Positions 2,843 to 12,515 of a DNA stretch of 52,397 nucleotides are shown one piece after another. The stretch lies in IMG/VR virus record IMGVR_UViG_2690316086_000018. One strand, written 5' to 3'. Source of the DNA: a virus. Lineage: Duplodnaviria > Heunggongvirae > Uroviricota > Caudoviricetes. Numbering within the stretch: position 1 is the first letter of the stretch; the number at the start of each line of letters is the position of its first letter. Below the pieces are notes generated by a model, which had not been told where the DNA came from, ran no database searches, and saw nothing but the letters and a program-made list of their open reading frames with translations. Both the position numbers and the translations under genes were made by a program.

Positions 2843-3550
2843 TTATATGTTTTCTTCTTCATCAAACTCATCTTCTTGAGAATAATCATCAAATATGTTG
2901 TCTTCTGAAAAAGAGTCCCAATCAATATCCTCATCGGGTGTGGAAAGCAAAGGTTTATCATCTTCTTTATTGATTGATTTCTCTTCGTGGTTTTTAAATA
3001 TCCTATCTTTATAAACGGTGACGAATACGTCCTCGATGCCTTCACTGGTTGTTCTCAGCGACTTCTGAACATATTCTTTCCTTATTGGATTTAATGTTCT
3101 GTATTGGCCTTTCAGGAATAGATTGGCGTTTATTAAAGTGTGTTTACCGTCTTGAATAAGAATGCCTTTATTGATAAGTTTTTTCCAGCATTTGCACACA
3201 TTAGATTTGCTCATACCAAGCTCTTCTGCGAGTGCTGACTGAGATATACTGGCTATCAGATTCCCATGCTGCATGAGTTTACACAAACGGATCATTATTG
3301 TGTATTCAGCACCAGACATATTTTTACCAAGCTTTTCCAGATTATCGACAAAAGCATGAACATAGGCTATTCCCGGCTGTATATCCGAACTTCGTTCCTT
3401 TTTAATATTGACGGTTATTTTATCTTTTCGGTTTCTGTTATAAAAACTGTAAATCTCTAGTTTCTGTTTATCGGTAAAATCATTTTTGTTGATATAATCT
3501 TCCAATTGTTCACTACTTGAGGTCATTATTGTGTTGTAATCAATGCTCAT
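2843..3550 (-). CDS. putative iteron-binding replication initiator (winged-HTH, acidic C-terminal tail)
   Basis: 235-aa ORF with HTH-like segment ISQSALAEELGMSKSNVCKCWKKLINKGIL; AT-rich region and iteron array immediately upstream. Confidence 0.45.
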   Translation of the reverse strand: MSIDYNTIMTSSSEQLEDYINKNDFTDKQKLEIYSFYNRNRKDKITVNIKKERSSDIQPGIAYVHAFVDNLEKLGKNMSGAEYTIMIRLCKLMQHGNLIASISQSALAEELGMSKSNVCKCWKKLINKGILIQDGKHTLINANLFLKGQYRTLNPIRKEYVQKSLRTTSEGIEDVFVTVYKDRIFKNHEEKSINKEDDKPLLSTPDEDIDWDSFSEDNIFDDYSQEDEFDEEENI

Positions 3551-3689
3551 GGTTTTTCCTTTTATTATTATTGTTGTTTTTTATATATAATGCAGTATGT
3601 GCTTTTGTCAAAAATAAATGTGAAAAAAAGAAAAATAATACACTTTTGCGAAATAGCGTCCACTGCTTGCTTGCGGATTTTAACTATTG

Positions 3690-3790
3690 AAAGTTTCCAC
3701 GGAAGAAACTTTGGTTTCTGTACAGGAAACTTCGGTTTCCATAGAAGAAACTTAAATTTCCGTACAGGAAACTTTTTCCGTAAAATCTCC
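3690..3790. repeat. iteron-like array, ~4 direct repeats of ~21-22 bp (GAAACTTnnnnTTTCCGTACAG-like)
   Basis: direct repeats visible: ggaagaaactttggtttctgtaca / ggaaacttcggtttccataga / agaaacttaaatttccgtaca / ggaaactttttccgtaaaatc. Confidence 0.55.
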
Positions 3791-3915
3791 TTTAAAAATA
3801 ATGGTTTATGCTTCCTTAATACTATAATATGTTTAATAACTTTAACGTGGAGTGTGCCGGATAAATGGCACCGTTTGGTTTTTTTATTATTTTTACTTTA
3901 TGTTATGAACAGCCA

Positions 3916-3947
3916 GTGATTGTTTTGCACAATCACGAAATGCTGCT
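3916..3947. repeat. partial third copy of palindrome-containing repeat (GTGATTG..CAATCAC..GAARTGCTGCT)
   Basis: gtgattgttttgcacaatcacgaaatgctgct matches the core of the repeats at 4015 and 4516. Confidence 0.5.
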
Positions 3948-4014
3948 TTTATTGTGAGAGCTTATTTAAGATTTCTTTTACTTTATATGCGTCTTCGATG
4001 CGATCTTTTTTGGA

Positions 4015-4150
4015 TAAATCCATCATTAACAGGGGCAAGCCCTGTCCAACAAAGTGATTGGTGTGAACAATCACGAAGTGCTGCTACTAAATATATAGTT
4101 TTCCTATGTGTTTAAGAGCAAATGCTATATGTCAGAGGGGAAATGCTATG
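4015..4150. repeat. ~135-bp direct repeat copy A with two internal hairpins
   Basis: ~90 percent identical to 4516-4650; contains CAGGG-gcaag-CCCTG and GTGATTG-n7-CAATCAC inverted repeats. Confidence 0.65.
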
Positions 4151-4515
4151 TTCGAACATAGGATCTGATGTTAACTTGATAGAGTGAATAGTGAGATTAA
4201 GATCATGTTGTTTTCCATTGATAAAATAGTAATAACTTATAAGTGAACAAGAAAAATAGTTTTATACCAGTATCAGGGGCGTAGCCGTGCGCCAGCACAA
4301 TGTATATATTTTCAAAAAAAATAATTGAATGTATCAGGTAAGAATAAATATCAATAAATATAAGTAATAGTGTTCTATAAGCTGTTAATAAACCGCACAG
4401 GAAGCTTGCTAAGACGTTGGAAGCAGGAAGATGACACATATAACCATCTTCATACTTAAAACGCTTATAATTGATTACAGGCAGTAATTTATATGGAAAA
4501 AATCATTAATTGAAA

Positions 4516-4650
4516 AATCCATCATTAACAGGAACAAGCCCTGTCCAGCAAAGTGATTGTTGGCAACAATCACGAAGTGCTGCTACTAAAGATATAGTTT
4601 TCCTATACATTTAAGAGCAAATGCTATATGTCAGAGATGAAATGCTATTT
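4516..4650. repeat. ~135-bp direct repeat copy B
   Basis: near-identical to 4015-4150. Confidence 0.65.
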
Positions 4651-4748
4651 TTAATTATTTAGTGTTATGAAAAACTAGATCCTGTTTATATCCGCTTGGT
4701 TTCAGCACTCACACAGATGTGTGAAGAAACTATAAAATCACAGATGTT

Positions 4749-4795
4749 ATAAAATATCATAAATATCATAAATATCATAAATATCATAAATATTT
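4749..4795. repeat. tandem 9-bp repeat (ATCATAAAT) x4 plus partial copy
   Basis: atcataaatatcataaatatcataaatatcataaat read directly; ~80 bp upstream of operon start. Confidence 0.75.
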
Positions 4796-4873
4796 TTGAT
4801 ATTACGACTGGTTGCATGGTATTAAATAAAAATAATAACAAAAATCTACTTGGCTACAGCTTTGACAGGAAAC

Positions 4874-5227
4874 ATGGATAAACACTATATCCCTGTTTTA
4901 CAGGATTTAAGAAGAGTGATATACAGCGACAGAATGTTATCAAGGCTTGCAGATAGCGGCAATATTGTTATCCATAGTTCAGTTGGGTATCCGGTTGCTA
5001 AATACAAAAACACGGGGATTAGCATAGGTATAGAACCATTGAATCCAATGATAAGACAAGATCTGACTCTTGGATATATAGTGGTCGTCAGAAACGGGAA
5101 AACATCACAGGAGATTAATGGTTTACTTAACAGGTCATTGCCAAAAGCAATAAGCACTTTTAAGGATCACATCAATGAATATGAAGCAGTAAAAAGTAAA
5201 ATGCGACAACAAACTATGATCTGGTAA
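4874..5227 (+). CDS. hypothetical protein (first gene of unknown operon)
   Basis: ATG at 4874 preceded by AGGAA; track ORF begins at TTG 4850. Confidence 0.4.
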   Translation: MDKHYIPVLQDLRRVIYSDRMLSRLADSGNIVIHSSVGYPVAKYKNTGISIGIEPLNPMIRQDLTLGYIVVVRNGKTSQEINGLLNRSLPKAISTFKDHINEYEAVKSKMRQQTMIW

Positions 5228-5264
5228 AATATTTAGTCTGATAACTTCAGGAGGAGGATGAGCG

Positions 5265-6227
5265 ATGGAAGGTAAGTTAATTTTTTGTTCCGATGCAATA
5301 CTACGGTTTCAGTCCGATTACGATGAAACCGCTGCCGTTCCATTGCTATCCATCCAGAACGTCATAGCCGATACCGATCCGTTTTTTCTTCTCCGTTTCT
5401 TCCACCATACCGTTCTGATTGAAGAAGGAACAACGCTGGCAAGTATCTTTCTGGCAATAGAACCGTGGAAGGCTTTGTTAGCGGCTTATCTGGACAGAGA
5501 TGTTGGTGCTTATATAGATGAGGTAAGAAAACCGTCCGGGCCAACGACATGGGATATTGAATGGATTGGGATTGATCGTCGTAGCATGGTTTACCGTGCT
5601 TATAAACGTCAGGAGATGCAAGATGATGAGGACGTTTCTGACTATTTAAACCGGGAACGCGTTCTGACCGATGAATTTGAGATTGAAAGTGGCTGTGAGG
5701 CTTCTGGCTTCATTAAAGGTGATAAAGAACGCTGGAGCATCAGTGGTGATGTTCACGAGATAAAGAATCTGCCTGTAATCCTCTATAGCAAACAGACATT
5801 GATGACTTCACCGAAAGACGGTTTGCTGAAGAAAAACGTATCGGGTGTGAAGAGTTCCAAGCACAGTTGCTTCGTTTATGGCGATACCTCGTTTTCATTG
5901 AGAGAGGTTATGGAAGCCATCTTCATTAGCGGGCTGTTCTTCTATGCGCCAAGAGACGCCGCCAGTAGTCTTGATGAGCTGAAAGCGAGTGTGGCTGAAC
6001 TGGAAGAAGAACGCGCTGAAAATCCAAATGCGGAGTCGACTGGCAATGAAACAGAGGAAGAACCTACCATCGTCGTAGCCGAAGGTGCATTTGATTCGCT
6101 CGCAGCTCACATGGAGTCTGAAAACGCGGAGTGGCAATACATTAAGAAGTTGTGCCAGCAAGAAGGTGAGCTGCCCATACGTATTGGCAACATCAAAATG
6201 GCTGAGCCACCAGAGTTTCATTTTTAG
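5265..6227 (+). CDS. hypothetical protein, 320 aa
   Basis: strong RBS aggaggagg before ATG; acidic C-terminal region; no recognised motif. Confidence 0.5.
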   Translation: MEGKLIFCSDAILRFQSDYDETAAVPLLSIQNVIADTDPFFLLRFFHHTVLIEEGTTLASIFLAIEPWKALLAAYLDRDVGAYIDEVRKPSGPTTWDIEWIGIDRRSMVYRAYKRQEMQDDEDVSDYLNRERVLTDEFEIESGCEASGFIKGDKERWSISGDVHEIKNLPVILYSKQTLMTSPKDGLLKKNVSGVKSSKHSCFVYGDTSFSLREVMEAIFISGLFFYAPRDAASSLDELKASVAELEEERAENPNAESTGNETEEEPTIVVAEGAFDSLAAHMESENAEWQYIKKLCQQEGELPIRIGNIKMAEPPEFHF

Positions 6228-6278
6228 TTTAAAAGCAATAATCTACCACTTAATGATTACGAAACTATAAGTCGAAGG

Positions 6279-11772: not shown

Positions 11773-12465
11773 TTATTTAAATCTTGAATTTGGCTGTTTT
11801 GATTTTTGTGATTGTTTACTACTATGTTCAAACAACATTAATGGTGTCACTTCTATATTGCTATCGGTAGAATTCTCTCCCTTACGAGGACGACTTGGGA
11901 AACGAACGGTCTTGTCATTATCTGATACGTTTCCACAGAAGTCTGCTTCTGATGATTTTTGGTCATTGTTAAATTTAGCTCGTTTTTCAAACTCTGAACG
12001 TGGAACATTGACACCCAACACTTCATCAAAGATATAGTTTTCTGCGATACGCTTATCATGATCAGCATCAGTGGTATCGGGCTTCCTTCTGGCCCATACG
12101 AATCTCTCTCTTATATATCCTACCACCAGTAGTGTGAAACGCTTAAACAAACTACTCTGACGCGGCTTAATCTGTTTCCTACTACTCATGGGAGCACGGT
12201 TCATCACTTTGGTGTTTTGAAGAGATGGGGTTTTCAATTTAGTGGATGCATTTGGTTCAGGAACAACCAGAACAGGGGATTTCTTCCCTGAAACATTTAC
12301 TTTACTGACCTTATTAGGATCACGGTAAGATTTTGCTGCTGGTCTTCTGCTTGTAGTTGCTGTTGCCACAATCGGCTGCTGTTCTTCTACTGTCGGGAAG
12401 TCAGGGATAACAATCTCTTCGGGTTCAGCAAGATGTGTAATCGTAAAGCTTCTGACATCAACCAC
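11773..12465 (-). CDS. hypothetical basic low-complexity protein (GTG start) just downstream of reconstructed mobA end
   Basis: 230-aa K/P/S/T-rich ORF; starts at GTG. Confidence 0.3.
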   Translation of the reverse strand: MVDVRSFTITHLAEPEEIVIPDFPTVEEQQPIVATATTSRRPAAKSYRDPNKVSKVNVSGKKSPVLVVPEPNASTKLKTPSLQNTKVMNRAPMSSRKQIKPRQSSLFKRFTLLVVGYIRERFVWARRKPDTTDADHDKRIAENYIFDEVLGVNVPRSEFEKRAKFNNDQKSSEADFCGNVSDNDKTVRFPSRPRKGENSTDSNIEVTPLMLFEHSSKQSQKSKQPNSRFK

Positions 12466-12515
12466 GATCTCAAGTGGTAGCTCACTGAATGTGGTGTATA
12501 TAGCGCGGCGATTTT

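Follow-up and report, generated by a model that had tools for sequence, protein, structure and literature searches.

What are the direct repeats, each built of short paired hairpins, that stand between a replication initiator gene and a cargo operon in IMG/VR virus record IMGVR_UViG_2690316086_000018? The whole 52,397-nucleotide (nt) stretch of that record is called the window below, and the repeats lie in it within a 1.3-kb gap of 31% GC that separates the initiator gene, which is RepL-like and has 21-bp iterons, from that operon. The original prediction, made from the letters of the DNA, was that they could be small structured RNA genes or else clustered binding sites for a regulator or partition protein. 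We find that they are very probably a cis-acting DNA module of the replication/transfer backbone of an integrative island and not an RNA gene, and we suggest tentatively, by analogy with the oriV of IncQ plasmids, that the module may be a signal resembling single-strand initiation (ssi) sites on the strand that is transferred in conjugation.

The two direct repeats that had been predicted (copies A and B) are real, but they are 150 nt long (4003-4152 and 4502-4651) and not ~135 bp. The predicted ~90% identity and ~500 bp separation agree well with a repeat search, which gives 88% identity (132 of 150 positions) and starts 499 bp apart. A partial third copy had been noticed near position 3916, and it is present as a repeat at 3915-3947 that a profile match extends to 3910-3947 (copy P; core only, profile positions 64-102, E 3e-6 by nhmmer). 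All three copies carry the predicted inverted repeat GTGATTG-n7-CAATCAC (3916-3936 in copy P), while the second predicted inverted repeat, CAGGG-n5-CCCTG, is perfect in copy A but has one mismatch in copy B, which reads CAGGA...CCCTG. The repeats were also placed correctly between the iterons and the downstream operon. GTGATTG-n7-CAATCAC-GAART occurs exactly three times in the 52-kb window, where dinucleotide shuffles lead one to expect 0.00, and a profile hidden Markov model (HMM) built from 57 homologous units finds no copies there beyond A, B and P. Parts of the unit that the original prediction did not mention are a hairpin with a T-run (hp0), the palindrome TGGATAAATCCA, a 40-nt right half and a second palindrome, CTATGTTCGAACATAG (coordinates in Table 1).

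The anatomy of the unit and its covariation were determined from an alignment of 57 non-identical units from relatives, and the variation of hairpin hp2 and its tail from ~160 copies, metagenomic copies included. Read 5′ to 3′ on the + strand, the parts are hp0, palindrome, hp1, linker, hp2, tail, spacer, right half and end. Hairpin hp0 is GC-rich, with a 5-bp stem and a 3-4-nt loop, and a T-rich run comes after it; hp1, (AA)CAGGG-n5-CCCTG(TT), is joined by the linker CCAGCAAT to hp2, GTGATTGT-n5-ACAATCAC, which has 8-bp arms and a 5-nt loop. The tail, nnnG(T/C)GC(T/A)GC(T/C) with the conserved core GYGCWGC, directly abuts hp2, and beyond it come a variable spacer of ~7 nt and the right half (ATATAGTTTTCCTATACGTTTAAGAGCAAATGCTATATG). 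The last unit of an array ends with the palindrome CTATGTTnnAACATAG and GATC sites, and in most relatives the same palindrome is likewise present after the last unit. The minimal conserved core is ~39 nt long and consists of a 7-nt 5′ flank, the 21-nt hairpin and an 11-nt tail. The unit palindrome contains TTATCCA(A/T)A, which we take to match the DnaA-box consensus at 8 of 9 positions and, in its E. coli type, to be that of the weak oriC R3 box; such a likeness would fit an origin-accessory role.

Majority-base conservation is 0.94 in stem columns, 0.69 in loops and 0.73 in linkers plus tail, and standard pairs fill 94% of the stem cells of the 57-unit alignment as opposed to 29-51% when the partners are slid. 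In hp0 four arm types (GCGGC/GCCGC, GCGTC/GACGC, TCGGC/GCCGA and GTGGC/GCCAC) result from compensatory GC<->TA changes at 4 of the 5 pairs, and loops of both 3 and 4 nt occur; in hp1 two pairs show compensation (CAGGG/CCCTG vs GGAG/CTCC). The arms of hp2 are essentially invariant in the ~160 copies, the 5 bases at its centre vary freely and its length is always the same; the CT of a CTG 6 nt past hp2 is invariant in the 57 units. Folded as single-stranded DNA (ssDNA), a consensus-like copy forms four consecutive hairpins (-26.4 kcal/mol, z = -8.7). An outer CAGC/GCTG stem around hp2, proposed by RNAalifold, was rejected, since its variants GCAGCC and GTACTGCT are uncompensated.

Is the repeat peculiar to this element, as was raised with the original prediction as the point on which it might fail? 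It is not: when one genome of each species was scanned for the pattern of hp2 plus tail, 48 loci came up in ~45 species of Enterobacterales (Escherichia, Klebsiella, Citrobacter, Enterobacter, Salmonella, Yersinia, Serratia, Pectobacterium, Dickeya, Brenneria, Erwinia, Photorhabdus and others; loci are cited below by L numbers), a search of metagenomes for the opposite end of the unit (palindrome plus hp1) gave ~100 further copies, and among 5426 complete E. coli genomes 395 have the region, in each case in the chromosome and not on a plasmid. The layout is stereotyped: the rep gene on the - strand, iterons, the P core, a full unit 138-142 bp on and often a third unit 300-500 bp beyond. In all loci examined the first core copy is 350-450 bp from the start of rep, past the iterons and an AT-rich stretch, and the orientation of the units is the same throughout ~50 loci. 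Between the units and the downstream gene the distance varies (~300-1000 bp) whereas that to the origin is constant, and the spacer from P to hp0 is not conserved among relatives.

A search for the motif in related plasmids had also been suggested. BLAST searches of 72,556 plasmids (PLSDB) with the unit and its 72-nt core as queries, at E values up to 10, did give matches, but only in island-bearing records; a mimic of a known plasmid origin of transfer (oriT) was rejected on this ground. The island-bearing records NZ_OL790696.1 (4.8 Mb) and CP088875.1 (393 kb) hold fli, dcm, ompC-like and zinT genes and appear to be chromosomes or chromosome fragments filed as plasmids. The unit has no match in phage records, the RefSeq records examined have no annotation under the repeats, and full-text literature searches returned no description of these repeats or of the origin region of this island family; the module appears undescribed. 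Two unit-like sequences lie away from the usual place. One is at 45348-45461 of L058 (E. coli CP088875), within the cargo region just past a DotA/TraY gene, and has hp0, palindrome, hp1 and right half but lacks the hp2 core; the other is an isolated right half 3.3 kb downstream of the units of L020.

Do the units belong to the resident initiator? The Rep1 of the window has iterons of the GTTTCC..GGAAAC type with 21-bp spacing, and these are also found in L002 and L005. The Rep2 of L046 is ~33% identical to Rep1 and has as iterons 3-4 CTATGTTnnAACATAG palindromes, a RepL type in Yersinia (L003) has CAATCACGAAGAAAA iterons, a RepL type in L004 has none that we detected, and in L042 and L021 a RepL-like gene on the + strand, with CTGACT..AGTCAG iterons, is 600-800 bp downstream of the units. 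The unit remains constant beside at least four such replaceable Rep/iteron types, and its sequence does not co-vary with the Rep protein in a comparison of Rep1, Rep2, the two RepL types and the downstream RepL-like protein. Because the module is the same beside four Rep/iteron types the units are not sites of the resident Rep, and it follows that what the module serves is not the resident initiator. In some islands the units have replicons on both sides. In many relatives the second of these replicons consists of a RepL-like gene (+) and four CTGACTnnnnnGTCAG-type iterons ~21 bp apart (3280-3370 and 3528-4299 in L042; 1040-1130 and ~1280 onward in L021), and divergent replicons flank the hairpin module in some islands.

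On which strand would the island be transferred? In ten loci the gap upstream of the relaxase gene mobQ holds a highly conserved block, with GCCTGCGGCAGGC and a GTTGACGTTGAC repeat in it, that ends in a 6-8-bp inverted repeat whose arms and 3-nt loop vary with compensation and which is followed by the invariant ATA(A/G)GTGGGCATTG. The site is 130-190 bp upstream of mobQ (22392-22429 of L001 in E. coli XH988; also in L007, L011, L012, L013, L017, L023, L025, L055 and L058). Its ATA(A/G)GTGGG CATTG agrees at 10 of 13 positions with ATAAGTGCG/CCCT (the slash marks the nick), which we take to be the NES form of the MOBQ nick region, and the site also resembles that region in the form TAAGTGCG/CCCT. 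In the IncQ1 plasmid that we used for IncQ comparisons in place of RSF1010 (NC_001740), the R1162-type oriT is an inverted repeat followed by TAAGTGCGCCCT, and the relaxase domain of the island MobQ is closest to those of NES of pLW1043 (2e-24) and R1162 MobA (9e-9). A MOBQ consensus has been given as NWACCNNTAAGTGCGCCCTYNN (PMC3832669). The mobQ-proximal site is likely the best candidate for the MobQ oriT, and it defines the + strand as the predicted transferred strand; it is outside the window because of a prophage (below). Eight loci have both units and this oriT, and in each of them the units are on the nicked (oriT) strand. In 4-5 relatives an extra unit is present ~500 bp (in one case 4 kb) 3′ of it, and in L007, L013, L017 and L025 this unit is in the mobQ-traD gap, ~500 bp beyond the oriT. 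The sequence GTGTTGCACAATTCAC in the E. coli mobQ-traD gap was considered as a decayed unit and rejected: it is a separate conserved motif that is also found where a true extra unit exists.

What might the ~170-bp module, which the AT-rich stretch separates from the iterons, do in the maintenance and transfer backbone of the island, of which it is very probably a part? We favor, as a tentative possibility, the following scheme: The + strand, the one predicted to be nicked at the island oriT and transferred, would become single-stranded when the origin opens or when the DNA enters a recipient by conjugation; the single-stranded left half of each unit would then fold into a row of hairpins (hp0, palindrome, hp1 and hp2) and so present the conserved 3′ tail G(T/C)GC(T/A)GC; and hairpins and tail together could act as a signal like ssi sites or single-strand origins (sso), at which a primase or primosome would start complementary-strand synthesis. 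The priming function, the enzyme involved and the formation of the hairpins in vivo are all things that we infer, with the same modest expectation. Such an ssi signal accounts for the constant distance to the origin, the independence from Rep, the hairpin covariation, the orientation with the transferred strand, the several copies and the geometry of the 39-nt core. Several co-oriented copies are usual for ssi sites and awkward for functional nick sites.

The known counterpart of this layout is the oriV of the IncQ plasmids RSF1010/R1162, in which iterons and an AT-rich stretch are followed by the ~40-nt hairpin-plus-tail sites ssiA and ssiB, each with a short 5′ flank, a 21-nt hairpin and a 3′ tail of 11-13 nt. 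The window has the same succession of iterons, AT-rich stretch and P core, with 7 + 21 + 11 nt in the core; the IncQ tail GTG(C/T)AGCC (IncQ1 plasmid) resembles the unit tail GTGC(T/A)GC(T/C); and both elements have a MOBQ relaxase. Honda et al. are said to have found in 1991 that the ssi half of the IncQ origin can be exchanged independently of its iteron half; in the islands it is the Rep/iteron cassette that has been replaced naturally, next to a hairpin module that stays constant. Unlike the IncQ sites, one of which is on each strand, the module copies are all on one strand, and no gene for a RepB′-type primase or RepA helicase was found in the island. The stem of hp2 is wholly invariant whereas those of ssiA and ssiB differ from each other, and the module adds hp0, a palindrome, hp1 and the 40-nt right half.

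Other single-strand signals are similar in part. Phage G4 oric and the consensus-like copy described above have in common three or four hairpins within ~100 nt of ssDNA and a CTG a few nt 3′ of the last one; the primer-start CTG of G4 is 3 nt past the last of three hairpins, the CTG of the units 6 nt past hp2. The G-site of plasmid R1 is ~400 bp from oriR, and the units are likewise a few hundred bp from an iteron-type origin. They differ from the G4 type in having no sequence similarity to it, in an hp2 that is frozen in sequence where G4 stems covary, and in that priming would here run towards the iterons. The sso of ICEBs1 (PMC4595007) is reported to be orientation-specific, hairpin-rich DNA that lets a conjugatively transferred single strand become double-stranded. 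The unit is likewise hairpin-rich and orientation-specific, but the ICEBs1 and rolling-circle sso are Gram-positive, RNA polymerase-primed elements that have long stems with promoter-like boxes, and no -35/-10 pair fits the short stems of the units.

A number of points weigh against an ssi-like role. Local alignment against shuffled sequences gave no significant similarity of the unit to G4 oric or the phiX174 n′ site (459/1000, 183/1000 and 710/1000 shuffles scored as high in the G4 oric alignments), and the similarity to the IncQ ssi tail spans only 6-8 nt. Searches of Pfam, NCBIfam and PDB found no primase domain in MobQ or its neighbouring genes, MobQ matching relaxase domains only, and iteron replicons that use the host DnaB/DnaG normally need no ssi. 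The invariant arms and free loop of hp2 fit a site read in duplex DNA as well as or better than a generic hairpin, and the copies all share one strand, where ssiA and ssiB are opposed. In the few relatives with an extra copy this copy is so close (~500 nt) to the 5′ end of the transferred strand that it would be badly placed as a single priming site. Finally, both window copies fold weakly as ssDNA (z ~ -2 on either strand); they are somewhat decayed.

Could the units be secondary oriT-like sites instead? In this close rival explanation hp2 plus tail would be a relaxase recognition hairpin with its nick region and hp1 a distal accessory hairpin, and MobQ or a helper relaxase would use them for extra transfer initiation or termination, relaxase-driven replication or segmental cargo transfer. 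An inverted repeat followed by TAAGTGC on the predicted transferred strand is what MOBQ oriTs have (R1162/RSF1010; NES of pSK41/pLW1043), and here hp2 directly abuts the tail, in the same orientation as the mobQ-proximal oriT in 8 loci. The commonest tail, TAAGTGCT, has 7 of the 8 nt of R1162/RSF1010 TAAGTGCG/CCCT (IncQ1 plasmid) that separate inverted repeat from nick there. The relationship of the island relaxase to NES and R1162 MobA, the co-orientation of all units with the oriT strand and the four loci with an extra unit ~500 bp past the MobQ oriT point the same way. The order small hairpin, 7-8 nt, large inverted repeat, 8-9 nt and CTG is moreover that of the IncI1/IncK oriTs (R64/ColIb-P9, IncK), where a small conserved hairpin, CCAG, a larger inverted repeat and 8-9 nt ending in CTG succeed each other, and GGGGC-AAGCCCTGTCCA in the hp1 region matches IncI1 repeat B and its flank at 17 of 18 positions (3/2000 shuffles are as high), a match that depends on the hp1 loop variant GCAAG and is less good with the majority variant ATGAA.

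Against this, the island has a better-matching oriT of its own just upstream of mobQ, and the nick-proximal arm of hp2, CAATCAC, is unlike the AGTGT of that likely oriT. In the ~160 copies the TAA of the tail varies (TAA, GAA, TCA, GGA, TGG, AAA) and nothing like CCCT is conserved 3′ of the putative nick, so the nick consensus is not conserved on both sides. The large inverted repeat is unrelated to IncI repeat A, the NikB nick motif CATCCTG of IncI plasmids is absent from the unit, and no PLSDB plasmid carries the unit, island-bearing records aside. In E. coli 8-18 kb separate the 2-4 copies of the module from the relaxase gene (at least ~8 kb from mobQ in the window and XH988), directly repeated nick sites, if several were functional, should cause loss of the intervening DNA, and the natural P/A fusions L051 and L020 are joined inside hp2 and not at the putative nick. 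Secondary oriT sites are thus an attractive but weakened idea, and a doubtful one as a whole.

The other close rival is the second half of the original prediction, clustered binding sites. In this explanation hp2 would be an operator- or centromere-like inverted repeat with 7-8-bp half-sites and a fixed 5-7-bp spacer, to which, as duplex DNA, an island protein would bind as a dimer (candidates are the ParA partner and a small, conserved DNA-binding protein); the CTATAYGTT repeats of the right half, ~21 bp apart, would provide additional sites, and the array would control cargo and rep promoters, copy number or partition. This is possible for hp2, whose invariant arms and sequence-free spacer of fixed length are the signature of a dimer site, but not for hp0 and hp1, whose compensatory pairing and varied loop lengths a duplex-binding dimer does not explain, and not with the resident Rep as binder. 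The lack of strand bias in the mismatches (below), the ParA gene of the island with its small partner gene and the location in an AT-rich region between divergent genes are in its favor.

So are two likenesses to iterons. At 4738-4792 of L003 (Yersinia pseudotuberculosis) three 20-bp RepL-type iterons, CAATCACGAAGAAAA, share the 11-mer CAATCACGAAG with the right arm of hp2 and the tail of E. coli units, and the closing palindrome CTATGTTCGAACATAG is the same as the Rep2-adjacent iterons or operators of Dickeya and Pectobacterium islands (3-4 copies; ~4785-4870, reverse strand, in L046) and is kept in the window despite Rep1. Because iterons share CAATCACGAAG and the closing palindrome, Rep-family proteins can read unit sequences; for hp2 the shared 11-mer suggests either that they can read its half-site or that the iterons arose from it. 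On the other side, the units are asymmetric and always co-oriented, they are unchanged beside four Rep specificities, they persist in islands without the DUF4756 and H-NS-like genes (e.g., L042), the only candidate binders that co-occur with them are small proteins of unknown function, and a centromere would not be expected to have spacings as irregular as 138 and 499 bp. On this evidence an array of duplex binding sites is not what we expect the module to be, although for hp2 it deserves some weight.

The first half of the original prediction, small structured RNA genes, fares worse. Such genes, or a structured leader RNA, would be made from the + strand, with hp0 and its T-run as a terminator or with the units as a leader/attenuator that acts on the downstream operon or the repL-like gene. 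It is true that hp0 and the hairpin at 3854-3871 are terminator-like on the + strand, that the stems covary, that the units are co-oriented with the downstream + strand genes and that in some relatives they are upstream of a + strand RepL-like gene. However, the RNA family search that had been called for found no Rfam family at gathering score in the whole window and only chance-level matches at E<=10 in 3500-4900. We found no sigma-70-like promoter inside or in front of the units, none conserved among relatives, and a depletion of promoter-like sites in the 1.5-kb region (2 vs 8.8 expected), and no terminator follows the units or hp2. G:T and A:C mismatches in the stems number 17 and 18, so G:U-type pairs are no commoner than A:C and neither strand is favoured as RNA. 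The frozen sequence of hp2, the variable distance to the downstream gene beside a constant distance to the origin, the unconserved P-to-hp0 spacer and the absence of a conserved start codon or frame in the short open reading frame over palindrome and hp2 likewise speak against a transcript. A small RNA gene is unlikely, and the RNA explanation in all its forms is very improbable.

Three further candidates can be dismissed briefly: a mobile repeat like miniature inverted-repeat transposable elements (MITE) or repetitive extragenic palindromes (REP) is rejected because copies occur only at one place in the island; a coding frame (ATG-GAT-AAA...) over palindrome and hp2 begins with TTG or ATT in other copies, is shifted by a 1-nt indel after hp1 and has no ribosome-binding site before it; and of sigma-54 promoter, lambda nut boxA/boxB, Xer/cer, Tus-Ter and shufflon sfx motifs we know of none that fits the unit. 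All in all an ssi-like signal is the preferred, if tentative, explanation; the secondary oriT and the operator/centromere array are its close rivals, each with a smaller share of our expectation, RNA has a very small one, and the rest goes to something else.

What might the module mean for the island as a whole? One rather improbable idea, to be taken as a whole, is that it is a portable, Rep-independent "second half" of an origin, read as a hairpin by a host, helper-plasmid or island protein, which the island family would keep while it swaps Rep/iteron cassettes on either side and which, by its position on the transferred strand, would couple conjugative entry to the establishment of the replicon. 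A variant is that the direct-repeat units, some of which flank cargo and mobQ, may be sites of relaxase or ssDNA recombination by which cargo segments are exchanged; were the units a second set of relaxase sites instead, they would bear on the shuffling of cargo between islands. The repeats look like a hairpin-type DNA processing signal and not a categorically new element. What is unusual is that Rep cassettes have been exchanged in nature around a hairpin module that stays constant. The cargo of integrative mobilizable islands includes genes for defence, virulence and resistance (in this family those for TcpC, TIR and macro-domain proteins), and how such islands are re-established after ssDNA entry is poorly known in Gram-negative bacteria. 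This ~100-nt hairpin module is among the best-conserved sequences of a widespread enterobacterial island family; it is conserved and outlives replacement of the initiator, and is therefore a concrete candidate for the missing single-strand-origin or origin-accessory function. GTGATTG-n7-CAATCAC-nnn-GYGCWGC is in any case a simple sequence tag with which to locate these islands.

Table 1. Positions of the repeat units and neighbouring features in the 52,397-nt window
Feature	Position	Strand	Sequence or remark	Basis
Rep1 initiator gene	2843..3550	-	235 aa, winged-helix	Pfam Phage_rep_O 3e-5 (weak), HTH_24 9e-5, RepL 5e-3 (weak)
Four 21-bp Rep1 iterons	3693..3774	not assigned	GTTTCC-n-GGAAAC type	repeat search, 21-bp spacing
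Terminator-like hairpin and T-run	3854..3885	+	GTGCC-n8-GGCAC; closes AT-rich stretch from iterons to first repeat	terminator scan
Copy P, core only	3910..3947	+	CAGCCA + GTGATTGT-TTTGC-ACAATCAC + GAAATGCTGCT	repeat search, nhmmer
Copy A hp0	3988..4002	+	GC-rich 5-bp hairpin GCGTC-ttc-GATGC, then ATCTTTTTT	terminator scan
Copy A, full unit	4003..4152	+		left profile E 1e-26, right profile E 2e-15
Copy A palindrome	4011-4022		TGGATAAATCCA	
Copy A hp1	4030-4044		CAGGG-GCAAG-CCCTG	
Copy A hp2	4054-4074		GTGATTG-n7-CAATCAC	
Copy A tail	4075-4085		GAAGTGCTGCT	
Copy A right half	4093-4131		conserved 40-nt block	
Palindrome closing copy A	4146-4161	not assigned	CTATGTTCGAACATAG; 4146..4165 with GATC after it	
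S element between copies A and B	4276..4322	+	GGGGCGTAGCC, GTGC-gcca-GCAC, A/T run ending TTTTCAAAAAAAA	
Copy B, full unit without hp0	4502..4651	+	palindrome half degenerate	left profile E 3e-22, right profile E 4e-15
Copy B hp1	4529-4543		CAGGA-ACAAG-CCCTG, one mismatch	
Copy B hp2	4553-4573		arms extend to 10 bp	
Copy B tail	4574-4584		GAAGTGCTGCT	
Copy B right half	4592-4630		right-half block	

The island itself is best seen in E. coli XH988, where it is ~22 kb long and has at one end an integrase gene that adjoins a tRNA-Asn gene. Its genes encode AlpA, an H-NS-like protein, DUF4756 and Rep, then after the repeats cargo (TIR, macro-domain and TcpC proteins), the MobQ relaxase, TraD, an IncI-type pilin, PilV, ParA and the integrase. 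The XH988 island has mobilization genes and no type IV secretion system, and it is therefore an integrative mobilizable element. It probably rides I-type conjugative plasmids; the IncI-type pilin and PilV in the island and the DotA/TraY gene in a relative point to an I-type helper. Orthologues of Rep1 with 82-99% identity occupy the same place in relatives.

In the window a 39-kb Mu-like prophage (~12506-51625; Mom, tail sheath, tape measure, portal, MuF, MuB and MuA genes; 53% GC vs 36% for the island) is inserted inside mobQ and leaves it as two - strand fragments, 11851-12507 and 51615-52397, so that the N-terminal part of the relaxase (amino acids (aa) 1-261) and its C-terminal part (aa 258-476) are on opposite sides of the prophage. 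Because the prophage splits mobQ, this copy of the island is probably not mobilizable by its own relaxase.

Several smaller features surround the repeats. The hairpin at 3854-3885 is conserved, with a variable loop, upstream of copy P in many loci. A perfect TATAAT at 3826-3831, for which no good -35 element is present, stands ~25 nt upstream of this conserved GGAGTGTGCC-n8-GGCAC hairpin with its T-run, and the pair (3826-3885) could yield a ~50-nt transcript heading away from rep. Homologues of the S element follow the units in L003, L004, L021, L042 and L046; in relatives it reads GGGCG(T/A)AGCC, GTGC-loop-GCAC, often ATGAGC-n4-GCTCAT and then TTTTCAAAAAA, with a 27-nt insertion in the GTGC-GCAC loop at some loci, and that of the window has no ATGAGC hairpin. 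To the right of the repeats a + strand operon of unknown function starts at 4874. Just upstream of it are ~5 copies of a 9-bp tandem repeat, AAATATCAT (4752-4802), and the stretch beside these at 4686-4750 is conserved in E. coli-type islands, e.g., L004. The cargo that follows the units differs at nearly every locus: TIR, macro-domain and TcpC genes in XH988, a restriction endonuclease in CP088875, an AAA ATPase with DUF4435 in Yersinia, and at 4335-6275 (-) of L042 a 318-aa protein with the reverse-transcriptase motif YADD and a 323-aa partner, a pair that resembles a defence system.

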